Counted from the first letter of the stretch, positions 4,415-14,875 are shown. The stretch is DNA of 32,000 nucleotides from Nitrososphaera viennensis EN76 (GCF_000698785.1 NZ_CP007536.1:1020001-1052000); one strand, 5' to 3'. A program made the numbers and translations. The notes: a model not told the origin generated them from the letters alone.

Positions 4415-5935
4415 TTATGCCATCTTTTCCTTCTCCTGTTTTGGCGCCCTCCTCTTTAGCAGCAGAGAGAAGGCCAGCGACGCGGCCGACAGCAGGCTGG
4501 CCGTAAGGAAGACCATGTTGTACGATTCGGGGGCAGGGTACGAGCTTCCTTGTGCCGACGACGTATGCTGCAGCTGCTGCATGTACAGCCCTGCGAGCGC
4601 CGGGCCTATCGACATCCCTATGAAGAACAGCAGCGCGCCCACGCCCACCGATATTCCCGTGAACTCTGCCGGGGACGAAGACACGATGATGTTCCATCCT
4701 GCGGTGCTTGTCAGCGAAAGGCCGGTGGCTATTATTGCGAGGTTGGTCGACACCAGCAGACCCGACGAATGGAACAGGAGCAGGCCGATTCCTCCAATCA
4801 GGCTGATTATGCCGCCAACTATCGTGGGCTTGATGTTTCCTATCTTGTTTATGATAAAGGCCGTCGCGGTGGCAAACACCAGGAACATTATCATGAACGG
4901 GAGCTGGACGTTTGCCGCGTCTACCGCGTTCCCGCCAAACCCAAACGGCTGCGGGCTCCTTACCAGCTGCACCACGGACGGGTACACAAGGAACATCGTT
5001 ATCCCTGTCGCCATCAGTATTATGTACGACGGCAGGAGGATCTTGTGCTTCAGCAGCCTCAGGTCGAGCAGCGGCGATGCCGTCCTTTTCTCTATGGCGA
5101 CAAAGAGCACAAGCGAAACTGCCGATGCTGTAAAGGCGCCTGCTATCTGTGCCAGGTTCCCCGGGTTGACCCCGGTCTCTACAAGCGTCATTCCCATCAG
5201 AAACGACGATATCGCGGCTGACAATGCTATTGCGCCCTTGATGTCTATTGCAGGCGACGGCTTGCCGGTGTTCCCCGTGCCCTTGGCAGACAGCAGCCGC
5301 AGGCGCGCTTCTCTGCTGCCGTTGTCTTTGACGAGTATGGCGATCATCAGAGTCACTATCGCCGCGACCGGGGCTATGGTAAAGAACGTGGAGTGCCAGC
5401 CAAAGTGCTGGATTATGCTGGCCCCTATCAGCAGGCCGACCACGGAACCGGCCGAATACGCAGAGCCGAATACCCCCACGGCTATGGCGAGTTTTGACGG
5501 CGGGAACGAGTCCCTCAGGAGGCTAAAGGCAGCAGGGACGGCTGCAAGGCCCACACCCTGGATTATCCTACTGGCAAGCAGGAACGATATGCTGTTTGCA
5601 AAGCCTCCCGCGGTGATGCCGGCAACATATATTGAAAGCAGTATGAGCAGTATTTTCTTTTTGCCGTACATGTCGGACAGCTTGCCGGCAATCGGTGTCA
5701 TTACGGCGGCCACTATCAAATACGCGCTGAATATCCACGCCGAAGTGCCGTACGGTATGTCAAAGTCCTGCATTATCTCAGGAATAGCCGGCAACAGCAT
5801 GGTCTCCGAGAACATCACTGCCAGGAGAGTGCTGCTGAGTATGGCCAAGGTGAACCACGCTGAACGGCTGCTGGTTACTGCTACCGGCGCGTTCTGCTCT
5901 TTTTCCTCCGTTCGTCTCCTCTTTTCCTCTTTCAT
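4415..5935 (-). CDS. MFS transporter, DHA2 (EmrB/QacA-like, 14-TM) drug:H+ antiporter family
   Basis: 506 aa and highly hydrophobic with many TM segments. MFS loop motif GKLSDMYGKKK after TM2. ATG start at 5935. Confidence 0.85.
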   Translation of the reverse strand: MKEEKRRRTEEKEQNAPVAVTSSRSAWFTLAILSSTLLAVMFSETMLLPAIPEIMQDFDIPYGTSAWIFSAYLIVAAVMTPIAGKLSDMYGKKKILLILLSIYVAGITAGGFANSISFLLASRIIQGVGLAAVPAAFSLLRDSFPPSKLAIAVGVFGSAYSAGSVVGLLIGASIIQHFGWHSTFFTIAPVAAIVTLMIAILVKDNGSREARLRLLSAKGTGNTGKPSPAIDIKGAIALSAAISSFLMGMTLVETGVNPGNLAQIAGAFTASAVSLVLFVAIEKRTASPLLDLRLLKHKILLPSYIILMATGITMFLVYPSVVQLVRSPQPFGFGGNAVDAANVQLPFMIMFLVFATATAFIINKIGNIKPTIVGGIISLIGGIGLLLFHSSGLLVSTNLAIIATGLSLTSTAGWNIIVSSSPAEFTGISVGVGALLFFIGMSIGPALAGLYMQQLQHTSSAQGSSYPAPESYNMVFLTASLLSAASLAFSLLLKRRAPKQEKEKMA

Positions 5936-5957
5936 GCCCGCAACTTTTAGAATAATG

Positions 5958-5967
5958 AATATATAAA
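5958..5967 (-). promoter_or_regulatory. TATA-like box (minus strand TTTATATATT) for the MFS gene
   Basis: About 25-30 nt upstream of ATG 5935 on the minus strand. Confidence 0.4.
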
Positions 5968-5974
5968 CACAGAG

Positions 5975-5998
5975 GTTTACAAATTAGTTTACAAATTA
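5975..5998. promoter_or_regulatory. tandem perfect 12-bp repeat GTTTACAAATTA x2, candidate operator
   Basis: Copies at 5975-5986 and 5987-5998, immediately distal to the MFS TATA box. A third near-identical copy sits in the equivalent position of the adjacent regulator's promoter. Confidence 0.55.
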
Positions 5999-6075
5999 TA
6001 CGAGCTACGTGCTAGATCATGCCCGGCTATAGAGATTCAATAGGCAGTTGCAGATTTTAGGCAACCAATCTCTAT

Positions 6076-6747
6076 CTAACTATTGTTCTGTATCTCAAAC
6101 CTGCACACGCGGTCGCCGTTGGCAGCCCTGTGGGTGGCTTCCACTTTTGCATCAAGGAGTTTTTCAAACATCTCGACCTCGGTGCTGCACGCCTCGCCGT
6201 GCTTTTCTGCTATTTCAAGGATCGGGCAGTTGTATTCCAGCAAGATGTGGCCGCTTCCTCCTCCTTTCTGGCGCCCGTGTTTCTTTGATTCTGCAATGTA
6301 GCCTTCTTCGTCTCGAATCCTTGCCAGTTCCTTGACTTTTGCATCAAAGGTCAGGCCCTTTAGGCGCGGGTAGTACTTGTCGTAAAGTTCGCTCTGCCGC
6401 TCGCGCAATATTTTTTCGACGCCTTCCTTGCCCATGTTGCGCTCTATGAAATCAAGCGCGCAGACTGCAACGGCGTTGTACGCCTTTGGAAACACCCTTT
6501 TGCAGTCATTTGTCAGTTGATAAAACATCTTGGGCCGGCCGACGCCCTTCCTTATTTCGATGCTCTCTACCAGCCCCCTTTCCTGCAATACTGCCAGATG
6601 CTTGTGAACAGCCATCTTGGATATCTTCATGGCTTCAGCCAGGTCCCTGAGCTGGGCTTGCTGCATGACCTTGAGGTAGTACAGAATCTTCTTTTTTGGG
6701 CCGCTGTATCCACCCGCAATTTCATTCGATTCTGGGGCAGAGTCCAT
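6076..6747 (-). CDS. ArsR/COG2345-type winged-helix transcriptional regulator with Cys-containing C-terminal domain (SufR-like architecture)
   Basis: 223 aa. N-terminal wHTH (ILYYLKVMQQAQLRDLAEAMKISKMAVHKHLAVLQERGLV). The C-terminal domain has three spaced Cys (NCP, ACS, VCRF). Confidence 0.7.
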   Translation of the reverse strand: MDSAPESNEIAGGYSGPKKKILYYLKVMQQAQLRDLAEAMKISKMAVHKHLAVLQERGLVESIEIRKGVGRPKMFYQLTNDCKRVFPKAYNAVAVCALDFIERNMGKEGVEKILRERQSELYDKYYPRLKGLTFDAKVKELARIRDEEGYIAESKKHGRQKGGGSGHILLEYNCPILEIAEKHGEACSTEVEMFEKLLDAKVEATHRAANGDRVCRFEIQNNS

Positions 6748-6770
6748 ATGCTTTGATTCTTTTTTGGCAA

Positions 6771-6778
6771 GAATATAC
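6771..6778 (-). promoter_or_regulatory. TATA-like box (minus strand GTATATTC) for the regulator gene
   Basis: About 30 nt upstream of ATG 6747 on the minus strand. Confidence 0.35.
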
Positions 6779-6784
6779 CTTTTG

Positions 6785-6796
6785 GTTTACAAATAA
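6785..6796. promoter_or_regulatory. third copy of the operator-like motif (GTTTACAAATAA)
   Basis: Matches the 5975-5998 repeat unit at 11 of 12 positions. It lies 6-7 nt distal to the regulator's TATA-like box, the same placement as in the MFS promoter. Confidence 0.5.
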
Positions 6797-6899
6797 TAGT
6801 AGGCACAACGTCGCGGTCCGTTTCTGCTCCACGACATGCCAGTCATCCCATATCATTCTGGGACGCCGTCCTGCGCACGCGCGCACACACAGAGAGAGA

Positions 6900-7015
6900 C
6901 AGCCGGTAGCTGTAAAGGAGCAGGGCGACGCGCCTCTGCCATTTATAGGCATGGGGCCGCAGCGGTTGTGTAATGATTATGCTTTTCACCCTGAAAAAGC
7001 ATGCAACAAGAATGA
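6900..7015 (+). pseudogene. decayed 3'-terminal fragment of a paralog of the TIMP-like gene (sorting-signal region)
   Basis: The DNA aligns by eye with 4271-4387. QPVAVKEQGDAPLPFIGMG matches QPIVVKEPGDPFLPFIGIG, and after a 1-nt indel a second frame gives IMLFTLKK against IVLFTLRK. Nothing homologous lies upstream. Confidence 0.6.
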
Positions 7016-7111
7016 AGTAATCAGAAATTGTGTGTTTTTGTTCATCGAATGAACTAGTCTTTTCAGTGAATGAACTACTATCAATAAATAAACAATTATC
7101 GGTTTTTCCTT

Positions 7112-7294
7112 GTGGGACGATCTGCCCTCATTTCAATTTCATCTGGGGTGCTAACCGCCGCTGCTGCAGTGGCGCTCCCTGCATTGAGCATCATCATCAG
7201 CAGCATCCTCGCAATTCCCAATTCAGGGTCGGAACAGGAGCGCAGTGGAAACTTGCCATCATCAATATTTTTGGCGATCAGCAAGGCAGGATAA
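7112..7294 (+). CDS. candidate small hydrophobic membrane protein (60 aa)
   Basis: GTG ORF with a TM-like core (VLTAAAAVALPALSIIISSILAI). AATAAATA lies about 25 nt upstream, matching the local promoter spacing. It competes with overlapping ORFs in other frames. Confidence 0.3.
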   Translation: MGRSALISISSGVLTAAAAVALPALSIIISSILAIPNSGSEQERSGNLPSSIFLAISKAG

Positions 7295-7386
7295 TGCTAA
7301 CGATTACAGCGGCAGAAAGTGCAAAAATGAATGCTGCAGGAACAATCAAGCTGCTTGCCCGAATGAAACGCGAGATTGAAAAATAG
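7294..7386 (+). CDS. candidate 30-aa basic peptide coupled to the preceding small ORF
   Basis: ATG overlaps the upstream TAA (TAATG). Sequence MLTITAAESAKMNAAGTIKLLARMKREIEK. No homology recognised. Confidence 0.2.
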   Translation: MLTITAAESAKMNAAGTIKLLARMKREIEK

Positions 7387-7448
7387 AGACATGAGTTGAC
7401 TTGACCTGAGAAACTTGCATCGCACGGTAAATCAAATGTGGAAAAGTA

Positions 7449-7712
7449 CTAGCCATCGTGCAGTTCTATCACCACCATCATTGTCTGCGTCGCCTTGACC
7501 TTTTCCATCCGCCTTATGCGCCGGTTCACGACCTCCTTTAGCCGGTCTTCGGTATCAGCACAGACTTTAACAATTATGTCAAAAGTGGAGCCGTAAATCT
7601 GGCAGGCCTCGACGACCCCCGGCAGCGTCTTGAGCTCGTCAATGAGTGCATTCTCGCATCCAAGTTCGCAGTTTATCAGAATGTATGCTGACGGCATGGA
7701 ACCACGACACAT
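7449..7712 (-). CDS. stand-alone Lrp/AsnC ligand-binding (RAM) domain protein
   Basis: About 80 aa with a RAM-domain pattern (AYILINCELG, LPGVVEACQIYGSTFDIIVKV) and no HTH. The start may be the Met at 7697. Confidence 0.65.
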   Translation of the reverse strand: MCRGSMPSAYILINCELGCENALIDELKTLPGVVEACQIYGSTFDIIVKVCADTEDRLKEVVNRRIRRMEKVKATQTMMVVIELHDG

Positions 7713-7852
7713 GCACTGTGCAGATCTCTGGAAAAGTCAGGCGGGTGACAATAATATTCTGGCTGCTGCCGTACCGGTTCTACGGCGGCAACCTCCTTCT
7801 CCGACAGGGTCATTTTTCTACTTCACCTAAAACCACTCCACCACCACCATCA

Positions 7853-10022: not shown

Positions 10023-10334
10023 ATGAAAGTGAAAATGTGGAGGCTCGTGATAAGGATAAAGAAACATGACACATTGCACGGAAAGCCGCTGCACAACGCG
10101 CTCATAGATTTTCTGATCAAAGCTGGAATCAGCGGGGCCACAGTCTGGGCGGGAGCTGACGGCTTTGGCAAGCATGGCAGGTCGAGAATCCACCTGGAAG
10201 GAATCAGGATTGACTATCCACTTTTGATCGAGGTTGTAGAAGAGCGGCCAAAGCTGGAGCCCTTGCTCCCGCAAATCGGGCGAATGGTAGGAGACCACGG
10301 CCTAGTTACGCTTGAAGAAGTACTGGTTTTTTAG
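10023..10334 (+). CDS. DUF190/UPF0166 PII-like small protein, paralog 1
   Basis: 103 aa with the GATVWAGADGFGK motif typical of DUF190. Identical to the ORF at 13731-14042 at 52 of 103 residues by hand count. Confidence 0.7.
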   Translation: MKVKMWRLVIRIKKHDTLHGKPLHNALIDFLIKAGISGATVWAGADGFGKHGRSRIHLEGIRIDYPLLIEVVEERPKLEPLLPQIGRMVGDHGLVTLEEVLVF

Positions 10335-10397: not shown

Positions 10398-10403
10398 GAA
10401 ACC
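10398..10403. repeat. GAAACC, left copy of a putative target-site duplication
   Basis: Lies immediately outside the left inverted repeat. The same hexamer in the same orientation lies immediately outside the right repeat. Confidence 0.5.
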
Positions 10404-10485
10404 ATACACTGGTAATTCTTAGGCGGATTTGCTAGGCTTTCCTTCGTAATATCACTGGCGACCCGCGGAAGAGCTACCAGTGTAG
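10404..10485. repeat. 82-bp left terminal inverted repeat
   Basis: ATACACTGGTAATTCTTAGGCGGATTTGCTAGGCTTTCCTTCGTAATATCACTGGCGACCCGCGGAAGAGCTACCAGTGTAG is the reverse complement of 13488-13569 with 3 mismatches. Confidence 0.85.
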
Positions 10486-10596
10486 GAAATCAGTCGCATG
10501 TCAACAAGCACTGAAAAAGTGATCTATCCTGATGCTGTATAAACAGGAGATAGGTTTGCCAAAATGGGTAAATAAAAGTTATATTTCTATATATCT

Positions 10597-10860
10597 GTGA
10601 AAAGAGATAGAAGAAACTTCTATCCGAGTTTAAGAGTAATATCAAAGATCTTGAGAATTCTCTTGGAGAACCCTACAATCACAAGGACCGACTTGTGCCA
10701 GAAGGCGGGGCTAAATTATAGCAGGTTTTTGAATCATCTTGATTGGCTAGGACAAAAAGGCATCATTGAGCTCAAGCTTGATTCTTGTAGAGTGGTTGTA
10801 ACGCTGACTAAAAATGGCCGAGAATTTACCATGATGCTCAATCAAAACAACATAAGATAG
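10597..10860 (+). CDS. small winged-helix DNA-binding protein
   Basis: ILRILLENPTITRTDLCQKAGLNYSRFLNHLDWLGQKGIIEL is a wHTH pattern common in small archaeal, plasmid and viral regulators. The start is ambiguous: GTG 10597 lies too close to a TATA-like run at about 10582-10595, and TTG 10651 is an alternative. Confidence 0.6.
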   Translation: MKRDRRNFYPSLRVISKILRILLENPTITRTDLCQKAGLNYSRFLNHLDWLGQKGIIELKLDSCRVVVTLTKNGREFTMMLNQNNIR

Positions 10861-10937
10861 ACGTTTGCGTCTATCTAGAGTACAATCCTGTACAATTATT
10901 ATACAAAAATGTTAGCGAAGCTTATTAGTTCATATCT

Positions 10938-12128
10938 ATGGCATGTCGTACCATGGCAAATCGTGTACCGAATGCCATAAACGGGGTAATGATGTCACTG
11001 CTTCTTTTGCTGGCGGCATACTCGCTGCCTGCGGTGATATCTCTGACCACAAAAGTAAACGATTCAGGTAATCAAGCACTTGCAACCAGCAATACAATCC
11101 CTGATGACAAGATACTAAAAAGAAATTGGAGTGATTGGAAAGATCAATACACGGAGGATGAATTTTATACATTAGAGAATAACACGCAGTGGTATACGGA
11201 TACTCTCAAAAATAACCCATCTCTGAACAACGTTATGAATGATGCCATAGCAAAAGACCTCACAGTGATACATAACTTCCACACCATGATTCACAAAAAG
11301 GATTATGGTCAAGAAGTTTTAGCATTGATTGTGTCAAAGCAGAGAATAACTCATACATACTCTGCAGATGAACCAGTTAAGCGATTACATGATTGGCTAA
11401 TATCTAAATACGCAGTGCCATCTACTGTATCAGAAATAGACAAAAGACTACAGGATATGGAATATGACAAATATGCTCCACTTGTAAGTCAAGTCATAGG
11501 TGCATATGATGACGCCGCTAAAAATGGCGTTGTACCATATGAACTCTATGCTCAAGACAAGGATTATTGGGGAAATGTGTCATTTCTATCATTTTGCCAG
11601 TTAGATGTGAATTGTTCATTCGGTGAAACAGATAACAATGCCAATACTGCAAATACAAACTTTAGTGGCAACATACTAGATTATGTATACATTCTAGTTT
11701 CCTATCTGGACAAAATGTATGAATCACACAATGCTTATGCATTGACTACGCACTACACTACATACTTCTTCTACCAGTTTACACCATCAAATGGTTGCCT
11801 AGACGGTATGTCTTGTCCTATTGTTCAATATACTAGCGGAACAACTGGACCTGTCAGTCTTCACTTTGACAGCAATGGAAAACACGCTCAAGGATCAAGC
11901 ATGTCAGTATACGCTGTCGCATATGACCAAAACAACTATCAGAGTTCACATAATGTAACGTTTACCGTCACAGTCCAGGGGTATAGTGTAAATAATTACC
12001 AATGTGTAGATTCATTAACTGGCACCGGTTATATTCAGAAAACCCAGAATTGTTCTATACCAGGCTATAGCCAAACCACACCTTGGACATTTTTCATAGA
12101 CGGAACTGCTGATGTTTGGTCTAATTAG
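10938..12128 (+). CDS. secreted orphan protein, Asn-rich with many N-x-S/T sequons
   Basis: 396 aa. Hydrophobic N-terminal signal or anchor (MMSLLLLLAAYSLPAVISL). No recognisable domain and no C-terminal anchor. AT-rich codon usage. Confidence 0.6.
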   Translation: MACRTMANRVPNAINGVMMSLLLLLAAYSLPAVISLTTKVNDSGNQALATSNTIPDDKILKRNWSDWKDQYTEDEFYTLENNTQWYTDTLKNNPSLNNVMNDAIAKDLTVIHNFHTMIHKKDYGQEVLALIVSKQRITHTYSADEPVKRLHDWLISKYAVPSTVSEIDKRLQDMEYDKYAPLVSQVIGAYDDAAKNGVVPYELYAQDKDYWGNVSFLSFCQLDVNCSFGETDNNANTANTNFSGNILDYVYILVSYLDKMYESHNAYALTTHYTTYFFYQFTPSNGCLDGMSCPIVQYTSGTTGPVSLHFDSNGKHAQGSSMSVYAVAYDQNNYQSSHNVTFTVTVQGYSVNNYQCVDSLTGTGYIQKTQNCSIPGYSQTTPWTFFIDGTADVWSN

Positions 12129-12160
12129 ATATATTGATATATCTAATACCCCCTTTTTTT
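12125..12160 (+). terminator. perfect 10-bp-stem hairpin followed by a T7 run between the two cargo genes
   Basis: TTAGATATAT-TG-ATATATCTAA (12125-12146) overlaps the TAG stop. TACCCCC and TTTTTTT (12154-12160) follow. Confidence 0.5.
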
Positions 12161-12173
12161 ACTTGTGATTGTT

Positions 12174-13295
12174 ATGAAACAATTACACCTTTTAATAATC
12201 TTGGCAGTGGCAGCATCTTTCATCAGCGGTATCGGCCTTACCATGTTTATGTCATCATCTTACACATCAAATGACCCAAACCATGTTGTTGTGGCTAATC
12301 AGATTGATAATAATACATTCATCTCTCAAGATAACGGTACTGTTTTTGCAGCCGTCAATCCGAATACAAACCGGATTTATCTAGCAAATGAAGTCAGCAA
12401 TACTGTATCTGTAGTAGACGGAAACGACAATGCAAAGATTGCAAGCATACAGGCTAGTGGTTTGCCTTTAAAGTTAGCTGTCAACCCAGATACAAACAGA
12501 ATCTATGTTACAGAACATCACATTGTTAACAACATAGAACAAAACGGTACGGTAACTGTCATAGATGGAAGCAACAATGCAAAGATTGCAAGCATACAGG
12601 TTGGCGCATATTCACAAATATCTGTCAACCCAGATACAAACAGAATCTATGTTACAGAACATCACATTGTTAACAACATAGAACAAAACGGTACGGTAAC
12701 TGTCATAGATGGAAGCAACAATGCAAAGATTGCAAGCATACAGGTTGGGGTGAATCCTTCTGGAATAGCTGTCAACCCAGATACAAACAGAATCTATGTG
12801 ATACACCACTATAATAAAATAAATGACAAATGGCAAAACGGTACGGTAACTGTCATAGATGGAAGCAACAATGCAAAGATTGCAAGCATACAGGTTGGGG
12901 TGAATCCTTCTGGAATAGCTGTCAACCCAGATACAAACAGAATCTATGTTACTAACTATATAGATGGCACCGTCTCTGTGATTGATGGTAATAGTAACAC
13001 AGTCATAGGCAAGCCAATCAAATTAGATTTTGGTGTTGAAGGAATAGCAGTTAATCCTCTTGCAAATAAGATCTATGTCGCTAATGGAATAACTGCCACC
13101 GTATATGTCATAGATGGTGGCGATACTGGAAGCAAAGTGGATGAGATTCGGAAACTATTTGCCTGGAACGTAGCTGTCAATCCAGTCACAAACAAGATCT
13201 ATGTGCCAAGCTATTTCTTTAACAATCTTTCAGTAGTAGACGGCAAGCATGATAACATAATGACAGTCATTCCAATAGGAATGTATCCTGACTAA
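12174..13295 (+). CDS. YVTN-family beta-propeller repeat surface protein
   Basis: N-terminal signal or anchor (MKQLHLLIILAVAASFISGIGL), then about 8 repeats of the VNPDTNRIYV...G.V.VIDG..N type (40-residue YVTN repeat). ATG 12174 is preferred over GTG 12165. Confidence 0.8.
   Translation: MKQLHLLIILAVAASFISGIGLTMFMSSSYTSNDPNHVVVANQIDNNTFISQDNGTVFAAVNPNTNRIYLANEVSNTVSVVDGNDNAKIASIQASGLPLKLAVNPDTNRIYVTEHHIVNNIEQNGTVTVIDGSNNAKIASIQVGAYSQISVNPDTNRIYVTEHHIVNNIEQNGTVTVIDGSNNAKIASIQVGVNPSGIAVNPDTNRIYVIHHYNKINDKWQNGTVTVIDGSNNAKIASIQVGVNPSGIAVNPDTNRIYVTNYIDGTVSVIDGNSNTVIGKPIKLDFGVEGIAVNPLANKIYVANGITATVYVIDGGDTGSKVDEIRKLFAWNVAVNPVTNKIYVPSYFFNNLSVVDGKHDNIMTVIPIGMYPD
12478..12949 (+). repeat. intragenic near-perfect tandem DNA repeats (period 144-150 bp)
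   Basis: 12478-12604 is identical to 12622-12748 (127 bp). 12684-12799 is identical to 12834-12949 (116 bp). All units are in frame within the YVTN gene. Confidence 0.85.
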
Positions 13296-13487
13296 GAGAT
13301 AATCGAAGAACACATGCGCGTGTGTCCGAACCTACTATAATGTCGATATCTTGGTAGAACGCGATTGGGCTAACCACCAATTCAATAATTACAAATTTAC
13401 CAAGATGTACTGCTGATCAACTTGTCGTTTGCTCAATGGATGAGATGCTCAAGTCCAGCCGACGCCAAGTTACCAAAAACTGTAACT

Positions 13488-13569
13488 CTACACTGGAAAC
13501 TCTTCGGCGGGTCGCCAGTGATATTACGAAGGAAAGCCTAGCAAATCCGCCTAAGAATTACCAGTGTAT
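13488..13569. repeat. 82-bp right terminal inverted repeat
   Basis: Reverse complement of 10404-10485, identical at 79 of 82 positions by hand alignment. Confidence 0.85.
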
Positions 13570-13575
13570 GAAACC
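13570..13575. repeat. GAAACC, right copy of a putative target-site duplication
   Basis: Lies immediately outside the right inverted repeat, in direct orientation relative to 10398-10403. Confidence 0.5.
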
Positions 13576-13730
13576 AATAAAGCTTTATAGCCGCGGATAC
13601 TGCTACAACAAATAATACAGGCTATGGCATTAGCCCTGGCGCAGGCCAAAACTGCCCTTTTGAAGAGAGGCGCGGATAATGCCTACTACTACCAGTAGAA
13701 AAAAGAAGGATTGGTGAGCACACACATACA

Positions 13731-14042
13731 TTGGAACTAAGGGCATGGCGCCTGATAATAAGAATAAAGAAGAGCGACCAGCTGCGCGGAAATAGTATTG
13801 AAGAGATTCTGCTCGATTTTCTCAGGGCCAACAGGGTTTGGGGCGCCACAGTCTGGGTAGGAGTCGACGGTTTTGGCAAGCGAAGAAAAGCGGTGAGAAA
13901 AGTTGAAGGGATAACGTTTGACTGCCCCCTTGTCATAGAAGCGATAGATGAAAAGGAAAGACTAGAGCCCTTGCTGATCGAGATAAGGCAGATAGTTGGC
14001 GACAATGGTCTGGTCACTTTGCAGGAGGTTGGCATCATATAA
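13731..14042 (+). CDS. DUF190/UPF0166 PII-like small protein, paralog 2
   Basis: 103 aa with a TTG start and the GATVWVGVDGFGK motif. Collinear with paralog 1. The stop overlaps the next ATG (TAATG). Confidence 0.65.
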   Translation: MELRAWRLIIRIKKSDQLRGNSIEEILLDFLRANRVWGATVWVGVDGFGKRRKAVRKVEGITFDCPLVIEAIDEKERLEPLLIEIRQIVGDNGLVTLQEVGII

Positions 14043-14875
14043 TGAGCAGAAAAATCCGGGCAATATTTGCAGACTATGATGGTACGCTGTGCCCTGCCGC
14101 AAACTTGCGATCTAGTGATGACGGAACGTCGTTCATACCAAGCCCTCTGGGAGAGACCCTGTGGACTCTCTCAGGATATATCCCGGTCTGCATAATCTCG
14201 AGCAAAGATTCACACTTTCTAGTCAACAGGGCGCCATTTGCAACCGTGTTCTCCTGCATCATGGGAATTGAGACCCTGGTGGTCAAAAGGCGCAACAATA
14301 ATGACATTCTGCCAGAGATTGAAAAGCGCAGGCTATCCATCAATAGAGCAAGGCTTCGAGAAAATGCGCGCAAGCTTGATTCCATATCGCAAATTGTCCA
14401 GTCAGAGTTCCCATTTGTGACGGCTGAAAAAAAGCGAACCAGCGACGATTTGCTTGCCGGCGTCACAGTCGACTGGAGGAAAAAGAAGGACTGGGATGAA
14501 CCGCGGGATGCCATAGAATCCTATGTACGGAAGATCGTCTCAAAATACAACAACAAATCCTTCAGGCCCGTGTATCTAGAGACTTACTCGTCGCATCCAT
14601 TCATCGATATCTATGCTACGAAATGCGACAAAGGCACCGGCTTTAAGCATGTCCTTTCAGAGATAAAGATGAAGGGCGAAGGCCAGATCATGTATCTTGG
14701 GGATTCTGAAAATGACAACCCTGCATTCCGGCTGGCTGACATCCCTATTGGAATCAGGTCAGACCCGCGACTAAAACCTAGATTGGAATGCGACTTTGTT
14801 CTAGAACAGGACATGCTTGCATCATTTCTGCAGCGCCTGCTAAGAAATGACCTGGTATTTTCAGAGGCATTGTAG
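14042..14875 (+). CDS. HAD-IIB family phosphatase, trehalose-phosphatase-like
   Basis: Motif I FADYDGTL, a DKG motif, and motif IV YLGDSENDNPAF. The cap-domain size fits the HAD-IIB/OtsB-like class. Confidence 0.65.
   Translation: MSRKIRAIFADYDGTLCPAANLRSSDDGTSFIPSPLGETLWTLSGYIPVCIISSKDSHFLVNRAPFATVFSCIMGIETLVVKRRNNNDILPEIEKRRLSINRARLRENARKLDSISQIVQSEFPFVTAEKKRTSDDLLAGVTVDWRKKKDWDEPRDAIESYVRKIVSKYNNKSFRPVYLETYSSHPFIDIYATKCDKGTGFKHVLSEIKMKGEGQIMYLGDSENDNPAFRLADIPIGIRSDPRLKPRLECDFVLEQDMLASFLQRLLRNDLVFSEAL

Follow-up and report, generated by a model that had tools for sequence, protein, structure and literature searches.

Paired, inverted MITE-like units around a low-GC gene module in Nitrososphaera viennensis: a candidate non-autonomous composite element

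The window analyzed here, a 32,000-nucleotide (nt) stretch of the Nitrososphaera viennensis EN76 chromosome (NZ_CP007536.1:1020001-1052000), contains a 3,166-bp cassette (positions 10404-13569, counted from the first nucleotide of the window) that lies between two genes encoding DUF190 proteins. The cassette carries three co-oriented genes, which encode a small winged-helix protein, a protein of 396 amino acids (aa), and a YVTN/NHL-type beta-propeller, and is framed by two 82-bp sequences in inverted orientation, each abutted on its outer side by the hexamer GAAACC (Table 1). Its interior has a G+C content (GC) of 0.384, as opposed to 0.536 in the rest of the window, and the GC of third codon positions (GC3) is 0.35-0.47 in the three cargo genes and 0.54-0.78 in the neighboring genes. 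Across the whole 32 kb, neither the gene tables nor a domain search revealed a domain of a transposase, an integrase, or a recombinase. An AT-rich block with three co-oriented genes, 82-bp inverted repeats identical at 79 positions, an adjoining GAAACC at either end, and no transposase is also what an initial annotation of this DNA had described, and each of these features was recovered. We consider the cassette to be probably a non-autonomous composite element, in which two units resembling MITEs, or miniature inverted-repeat transposable elements, enclose captured cargo and which was inserted once, with duplication of 6 bp of target DNA.

Table 1. Features of the cassette and its surroundings (window positions). 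L034, L036, and L038 are contigs of related Nitrososphaeraceae; L040 is a soil-run contig with a homologous cargo module.
Feature	Position	Strand	Basis or remark
DUF190-1, left flanking host gene	10023-10334	+	Pfam DUF190, 2e-21; closest homolog in L034 is the CrcB-linked DUF190, 62% identical
Left GAAACC copy, target-site duplication	10398-10403		Read from sequence; identical to 13570-13575
Left 82-bp MITE-like unit	10404-10485	+	Inverted-repeat pairs; hairpin z = -3.6; covariance model 104 bits
Outer end of left unit	10405-10426		TACACTGGTAATTCTTAGGCGG
Inner end of left unit	10463-10484		CCGCGGAAGAGCTACCAGTGTA
41-bp linker, left unit to conserved module	10486-10526		L040 homology begins only at 10527
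Conserved three-gene cargo module, winged-helix promoter region to propeller gene	10527-13295	+	L040 homology
87-aa winged-helix DNA-binding protein	10597-10860	+	Pfam HTH_24 1.8e-8, HTH_45 7.9e-7; 88% identical to L040 copy
396-aa protein, family unnamed, N-terminal hydrophobic segment	10938-12128	+	No Pfam match; 95 homolog clusters
376-aa YVTN/NHL-type beta-propeller, N-terminal hydrophobic segment	12165-13295	+	Lactonase, Cytochrom_D1, and NHL matches
192-bp non-coding insert tail	13296-13487		No homology to any relative past the propeller stop codon
Right 82-bp MITE-like unit, inverted, outer end facing right	13488-13569	-	Hairpin z = -5.1; covariance model 107 bits
Right GAAACC, native, single in relatives as GAAACCAATAA	13570-13575		Alignment with L034, L036, L038
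Target-site context: TATA-like TTTATA (13584-13589) and fluoride-riboswitch-like element (13611-13692)	13584-13692	+	Rfam; sequence reading
DUF190-2 and HAD-IIB hydrolase operon, right flanking	13731-14875	+	Pfam; operon conserved in relatives

In the complete genome CP104300.1 (GCA_025244945.1; 2.52 Mb), the cassette occupies positions 1,031,345-1,034,510, and window positions are converted to genome positions by adding 1,020,941. A second complete genome (CP103305.1) has the same sequence at this locus, as do assemblies of cultures and mock communities made with SPAdes and MEGAHIT, which shows that the locus is not an assembly artifact. The inverted repeats, together with internal repeats of the propeller gene, break short-read assemblies at this locus.

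The inverted arms were recovered in a repeat search of the window as segments of 83 nt (10403-10485 and 13488-13570) that are 96% complementary. Direct comparison of 10404-10485 with the reverse complement of 13488-13569 gave 79 identical bases out of 82. The three mismatches (unit positions 64, 71, and 73) are all located in the inner arm, leaving the outer 62 nt identical between the copies, and a 62-nt probe from this identical part matched only the two arms in the window, with no match expected in shuffled sequence. The GAAACC copies at the outer edges are in direct orientation, and a perfect match of this kind occurs among random hexamers of the window with p = 3e-4. A structure in which paired elements, inverted and with the same end outward, bracket passenger genes, and in which a perfect target duplication surrounds the whole, conforms to a composite element and supports the earlier proposal that the foreign block arrived as one unit.

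The comparison with related Nitrososphaeraceae identifies GAAACC as target DNA. The contigs L034, L036, and L038, whose HAD proteins are 66-73% identical to that of N. viennensis, retain the DUF190-HAD operon with its leader and lack the cassette. In L034 and L036, the same promoter and riboswitch are immediately preceded by a single GAAACCAATAA or AAAACCAATA, and a repeat unit is absent: the upstream alignment reads GCTGGATATGAAACCAATAAG-TTTAAT in L034 and GGTAAAACCAATAGC-TTTAAT in L036, and (unit)...GTGTAT-GAAACC-AATAAAGCTTTATAG in the window. Because the hexamer occurs once and without the unit in the relatives, it does not belong to the repeat; the right copy is native and the left copy is its duplicate. 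Whether GAAACC might instead be part of a repeat consensus had been set beforehand as a test of the duplication, and the duplication passed it. Under a 6-bp duplication, the predicted empty site is GCTGCCC-GAAACC-AATAAAGC. Excision of the element together with one GAAACC leaves 224 bp between the DUF190 genes, close to the spacer of roughly 220 bp estimated earlier.

The 82-bp repeats, first taken for the termini of an element, do lie at both of its ends but are not simple termini, because each is a complete MITE-like unit. Each arm forms its own foldback, in which the first 22 nt (TACACTGGTAATTCTTAGGCGG in the left copy) pair with the last 22 nt; these terminal inverted repeats are 82% complementary in the left copy and pair still better in the right copy. 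A single strand of either unit folds as one long hairpin that is more stable than those of shuffled sequences (Table 1). The unit end sequence is TACACTGG, and the 22-nt ends share the signature TACACTGGTAAYTCTTMGGCGG. With 82 bp, the units are well within the size range of MITEs (below approximately 500 bp), and they are non-coding; the sole open reading frame (ORF) that touches them is a 59-aa read-through without a family match. Possession of its own 22-nt inverted repeats provides each unit with two potential transposase-binding ends. The possibility that the unit is a known RNA was dismissed, as there was no Rfam match over the units at E <= 1.

The unit also exists independently of the cassette but appears to be rare. 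Species-representative genomes, Joint Genome Institute (JGI) metagenomes, and viral contigs were searched for exact matches to a degenerate pattern of the 22-nt ends, which yielded one further copy, in a metagenome-assembled genome (MAG) of Nitrososphaeraceae from Centralia (L001, in the genome scan; the same sequence was found again among the JGI metagenomes as L032). This copy is colinear over all 82 nt, with an intact inner-type end and a decayed outer-type end. It is a solo, intergenic copy among housekeeping genes (HMG-CoA reductase, RadA, and histidine biosynthesis); a transposase is lacking nearby, as is another copy within approximately 18 kb. The pattern scans produced no other copies; two further matches (L031 and L033) were rejected as chance hits inside a coding region, two additional unit probes did not match any viral contig, and diverged copies were likewise not detected when approximately 148 kb of related loci were searched with a covariance model of the unit. 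Nor did the genome, metagenome, and viral scans reveal a longer element with the same termini that could represent an autonomous insertion sequence (IS). The copies detected are thus two in N. viennensis, both flanking this island, and one in another MAG, a count for which coverage of the remaining N. viennensis chromosome by the scans cannot be confirmed.

Hexamers similar to GAAACC are also present on the inner sides of the units. The linker that follows the left unit (10486-10526) begins with GAAATC, which matches GAAACC at five of six positions, and the tail that precedes the right unit (13296-13487) ends with GTAACT, which matches at four of six; the joint probability of such resemblance by chance is approximately 3e-4 to 1e-3. 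The hexamers around the single units therefore form the pairs GAAACC/GAAATC (5/6) on the left and GTAACT/GAAACC (4/6) on the right, whereas the Centralia copy has no such pair.

These pairs bear on the alternative of two independent insertions, already raised in the initial annotation, in which a low-GC islet would have arrived by other means and an 82-bp MITE would later have inserted separately at each edge, into GAAAYC-like targets. This scenario would account for the completeness of each unit as a MITE-like element, for the solo copy elsewhere, for the similar hexamers on both sides of each unit, and for the occurrence of the cargo module in L040 without a unit on its left. However, the hexamer pairs of the individual units are imperfect, whereas the outer pair is perfect, and the two units differ at only 3 of 82 positions. 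Moreover, in a genome of 2.5 Mb, the only two copies detected would need to have struck exactly the two edges of a single 3-kb island, and to have done so as an inverted pair with matching ends facing outward. In addition, the right unit directly abuts native promoter sequence, and the shift in GC coincides with the units. Although the recognition of the repeats as MITEs stands, we therefore regard their independent insertion as unlikely, and as less likely than joint movement.

A composite element could have originated as follows. Two MITE-like units may have come to lie around a horizontally acquired low-GC module in a donor, forming the composite there. A transposase provided in trans and encoded outside the window, possibly by a transient donor plasmid or an integrative and conjugative element (ICE), would then have acted on the two outermost ends, which are identical over 62 nt, so that the whole structure moved in one event. 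The target would have been GAAACC, which precedes the putative TATA box of the riboswitch-DUF190-HAD operon by approximately 8 bp, and the duplication of this hexamer would have resulted from a staggered cut. The inner hexamers GAAATC and GTAACT may be relics of an earlier solo insertion of each unit in the donor and might also reflect a preference for GAAAYC-like targets. The location of all three differences between the copies in the inner ends agrees with a composite whose outer ends alone were required to stay functional. The single transposition event, the mobilization in trans, and the target preference are steps that we infer; the element is probably immobile today.

Several observations weigh against this reconstruction, the first of which concerns the exact position of the ends. 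An alternative parse of the unit ends is TA-[CACTGG...CCAGTG]-TA, which corresponds to IS630/Tc1-mariner elements, whose insertion duplicates TA alone, and L034, which reads ATATGAAACC, with ATAT before GAAACC, agrees slightly better with this parse, at four positions. If the true ends were CACTGG...CCAGTG at TA, the units would be a MITE pair of this type, the sequence GAAACC-ATAT-GAAACC would have preexisted at the site, and the predicted empty site would be GAAACCATATGAAACC; movement as a composite would still be possible. Ends of the CAsTG type resemble those of Tc1. At each of the four unit ends, as well as in the Centralia copy, CACTGG/CCAGTG is bordered by TA, and transposases of the IS630 family are present in the genus, in N. 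gargensis (PMC6563490 Table S3). Since TA is its own reverse complement, however, a duplication of TA is indistinguishable from an inverted repeat.

The TA parse also requires a second GAAACC to occur by chance exactly 10 bp upstream (approximately 1/4096 per offset), and L034, L036, and L038 all lack it. The identity between the copies extends beyond the TA, by one nucleotide on the inner side and by two (A, then C/G) on the outer side, and the likeness of the inner flanks to GAAACC would be left unexplained. Furthermore, no IS630 element has been catalogued for N. viennensis (PMC6563490). All in all, this parse appears rather improbable, and we estimate that a 6-bp duplication is about ten times likelier.

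The other difficulties of a composite element concern its missing counterparts. The initial annotation had proposed a non-autonomous element mobilized in trans; although a foreign unit with repeats, a duplication, and no transposase is indeed present, none of the scans detected a transposase with matching ends, no second copy of the composite occurs in any of the data searched, and no close relative with an empty site was found. Exact look-ups of the DUF190 proteins returned only assemblies of N. viennensis EN76, all of them occupied, and the nearest relatives are distant, to judge from the identity of their HAD proteins (66-73%), and differ in their upstream genes. The scan of species-representative genomes did not return the two copies in the window itself, indicating that the region is masked or that the genome is absent from the collection. 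To our knowledge, and going by the ISfinder family descriptions, none of the IS families catalogued for N. viennensis obviously yields a 6-bp duplication with TACAC ends. Finally, the homology of the cargo module to L040 starts 41 bp inside the left unit, and there is no unit on the left of the L040 module, the only side recovered; capture of the module by the units is therefore inferred rather than observed.

The lack of a transposase partner would also be compatible with an insertion that did not involve transposition, such as a plasmid or ICE fragment, or a circle, joined at GAAACC(A) by illegitimate recombination at microhomology, with the hairpins representing structural or regulatory sequences of the donor. 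A rearrangement of this kind has occurred in the same gene neighborhood of another lineage, where 3,788 bp were deleted at TCCAGA in the MAG contig L046. By contrast, such an event offers no reason why the insert should end exactly at the tips of two inverted units that have transposon-like ends and exist solo elsewhere, and we attach little probability to it.

Two other routes were considered and rejected. A casposon, a provirus, or an integrase-dependent element is not in agreement with the locus, which lacks Cas1, PolB, and integrase genes and has inverted ends and a duplication of 6 bp, instead of direct-repeat attachment (att) sites or a duplication of 14-15 bp. Single-strand transposition of the IS200/IS605 type, in which the ends are hairpins, the target is specific, and no duplication arises, would predict the same empty site; it was judged unlikely in view of the 82-nt hairpins with IS-like inverted ends and of the ORFs present in this host. 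The second ORF of the IS200/IS605 reference elements is TnpB, not the TnpA transposase. All IS200/IS605 matches listed for N. viennensis correspond to this second ORF (PMC6563490 Table S3).

The arms might also serve as recombination sites. In this case, a distant site-specific recombinase or homologous recombination at the 82-bp repeats would flip the cassette beside the riboswitch promoter. In two Logan contigs, each from a different run, L016 (SRR27002167_824, 6381-6870) and L020 (SRR22137145_203, 1064-1145), the left flank is followed by the right-arm variant (GCCGAAGAGTTTCC) of the unit in place of the left-arm variant at that junction (GCGGAAGAGCTACC), and L016 continues into the reverse complement of the right end of the interior (window 13570 to 13081). 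However, Logan assemblies use k = 31, and the contig breaks at 10432, 10437, and 13541 fit such an assembly. As 62 bases are identical between the arms, either orientation yields one and the same k-mer graph, so that neither contig settles the matter. Only one orientation is seen in the original EN76 genome, in the two newer complete genomes, and in the SPAdes and MEGAHIT k127 assemblies; there is no recombinase domain in the 32 kb, and the relations between promoters and genes inside the cassette would remain unchanged by inversion. A look-up of the winged-helix protein for reciprocal inversion junctions returned only the two complete genomes, and the literature yielded nothing relevant on inversion or resequencing of N. 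viennensis. Because inversion explains neither the duplicated hexamer nor the foreign GC, it would be at best an addition to the composite origin, and the chances of an invertible segment seem very slim.

A more far-reaching version, in which the 82-bp units represent an unrecognized and still active transposon family of Nitrososphaerales that generates 6-bp duplications and captures ICE-borne surface modules, combined with flipping of the cassette in cultures, would endow a model ammonia-oxidizing archaeon with a switchable, horizontally acquired surface module beside a riboswitch promoter; we consider this a long shot.

Cassettes bounded by a pair of MITEs are well known in bacteria but have not yet been catalogued for this archaeal group. 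The closest parallels are found in Acinetobacter, where a pair of 439-bp MITEs surrounds class 1 integrons and a pair of MITE-297 surrounds a 76-kb mer region (PMC6382973). As in N. viennensis, a short non-coding pair of inverted-repeat elements brackets passenger genes, no transposase is encoded, and a target duplication encloses the whole structure, in a manner comparable to a composite transposon. Unlike the Acinetobacter elements, the units of N. viennensis are much shorter (82 bp), reside in an archaeal host of the Nitrososphaerales, and enclose a regulator and two exported proteins instead of resistance genes; moreover, the composite is a single instance, and no partner IS is known. If the cassette is a composite element, MITE-type ends suffice to move cargo in these archaea, in the way that resistance genes are moved in Acinetobacter.

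Mobile insertion cassettes (MICs) of the IS231/MIC231 type likewise carry passenger genes between IS-type inverted ends, lack a transposase, and are presumed to be mobilized in trans. A MIC of the MIC231 type has simple, IS-derived ends that match a known IS in the same genome (IS231A), whereas the N. viennensis cassette has at each end an entire foldback unit, which in turn possesses two ends, and for which no matching IS was found. MICs are a category recognized by ISfinder and ISsaga (PMC3129680).

Among archaea, MITEs have been reported from Sulfolobus, Halobacterium, and Haloquadratum, and the respective review names none from thaumarchaea (PMC10969869). The 82-bp unit shares with prokaryotic MITEs its small size, the absence of coding capacity, the 22-nt terminal inverted repeats, the hairpin, and the solo intergenic copy in another genome, but differs from them by the very low copy number found in the scans, the lack of a clean duplication around each copy, and the lack of a known autonomous relative.

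Nitrososphaera viennensis is the main soil model of ammonia-oxidizing archaea, and its mobile elements have already been catalogued. The thaumarchaeal elements described by Krupovic et al. (2019) comprise proviruses, casposons, ICEs, cryptic integrated elements, and IS-like transposons, which fall into two groups: those that integrate by means of integrases, mostly in tRNA genes, with direct repeats of 10-19 bp as att sites, and ISs that consist of one or two genes and include a transposase (PMC6563490). The cassette, which occurs in one of the species surveyed, is likewise foreign and of low GC, and its cargo is kin to genes located beside ICE-like genes in a sister lineage, but it differs from the catalogued elements by its inverted ends, its 6-bp duplication, and the absence of both integrase and transposase. 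It is not among the 6 elements and 26 IS-like ORFs listed for N. viennensis, whose IS families are IS6, IS481, ISL3, IS607, IS200/605, and IS1595 (PMC6563490 Table S3); assuming the same coordinate origin in CP007536 and CP104300, the catalogued IS ORFs all lie away from 1.03 Mb, and the locus is not covered by any of the six integrated elements. The cassette escaped this catalog because it contains neither an integrase nor a transposase, and the survey describes no MITE-bounded cassette in thaumarchaea (PMC6563490), in line with the earlier remark that such an arrangement was not known to be described in this group. The signature TACACTGGTAAYTCTTMGGCGG, combined with a 6-bp duplication, can now guide searches for other modules captured in this way and for the transposase that has been missing so far.

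The cargo is a conserved unit that has relatives at other loci. The best-preserved relationship is with the soil-run contig L040, in which positions 5826-7746 correspond to window positions 10527-12444 with 89.5% nucleotide identity, up to the end of the contig. The gene order in L040 is the same as in the cassette (winged-helix protein, 396-aa protein, and the start of the propeller), whereas the upstream context is unrelated. This context is extended by L046, a contig from a MAG of Nitrososphaera sp. that is 98-99.8% identical to L040. In the L040/L046 lineage, the neighbors of the module encode a DUF87/TraG-like ATPase, a ParB_N protein, and a DNA methylase, and the GC of the module is lower than that of its context (approximately 0.5-0.56). 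The presence of the module beside conjugation-type genes, at another locus of another genome, indicates that it is associated with the mobilome and occupies different loci.

The module appears to be unstable in its ICE-like context. Comparison of L040 (3545-7332) with L046 (9861-9866) documents the 3,788-bp deletion at the TCCAGA microhomology, which removed the winged-helix gene and the greater part of the 396-aa gene from L046. The possibility that the difference between these contigs reflects a second mobile cassette was discarded, because the deletion occurred at microhomology and lacks inverted ends. A second winged-helix paralog, 37% identical to the regulator of the cassette, is encoded approximately 0.8 kb upstream of the L040 module on the opposite strand (4894-5100, minus strand).

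The pair formed by the 396-aa and propeller genes is present also in L043 and L044, a Nitrosotalea MAG (GC 0.36) and a TARA scaffold, and a third low-GC contig, L047, contains only the propeller gene. The winged-helix gene accompanies the module only in the closest lineage. Contigs of the L040 lineage break in the propeller repeats, and a query with the C-terminal part of the propeller retrieved only more distant homologs, with the homology ending at the stop codon. The distribution of the module across genomes and its position beside conjugative-element-like genes in the nearest lineage suggest a conserved unit that moves between genomes.

The 396-aa protein, which had been regarded as a secreted orphan, is not an orphan: its close homologs share 52-87% identity, and at least 95 homolog clusters (clustered at 50% identity) were found at E <= 1e-3. 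It has no Pfam family, no fold match in the PDB, and no relative in the IMG/VR viral sequences. The AlphaFold model (mean predicted local distance difference test score, pLDDT, 73.7) comprises a confidently predicted helical domain (residues ~50-228) and a C-terminal beta-sandwich, and the cysteines C220, C226, C287, and C293 are invariant in the family. The gene is paired with a YVTN propeller gene in several lineages of ammonia oxidizers. The propeller gene of N. viennensis contains four tandem repeat units of 144-150 bp (12401-12952), two of which are 99% identical at the DNA level, which suggests a recent internal expansion; many short-read contigs end in these repeats.

The flanking host genes differ in their relationships. 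The initial annotation had the insertion splitting a tandem pair of DUF190 paralogs. There is indeed a DUF190 gene on each side, but the two proteins are only 51% identical and have different orthologs in the relatives: DUF190-2 (13731-14042) is closest to the HAD-linked DUF190 proteins (77-79%), and DUF190-1 to a CrcB-linked homolog (Table 1). By their sequences, they are old paralogs brought side by side rather than a recent tandem duplication.

The right GAAACC is located approximately 8 bp upstream of TTTATA (13584-13589), which we read as the putative TATA box of the DUF190-2/HAD operon. The leader of this operon matches the fluoride riboswitch model RF01734 (13611-13692; 28.9 bits, E = 3.8e-5), with a score below the gathering score of 34, and is retained ahead of the DUF190-HAD operon in three related Nitrososphaeraceae contigs (in L034 at 1144-1211). 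The cassette lies approximately 36 bp upstream of this leader, and studies of expression may have to take into account that the insertion is only 8 bp away from the promoter of this fluoride-riboswitch-like operon. Elsewhere, L034 possesses another copy of RF01734, which scores above the threshold (45 bits), and also a CrcB-DUF190 pair.

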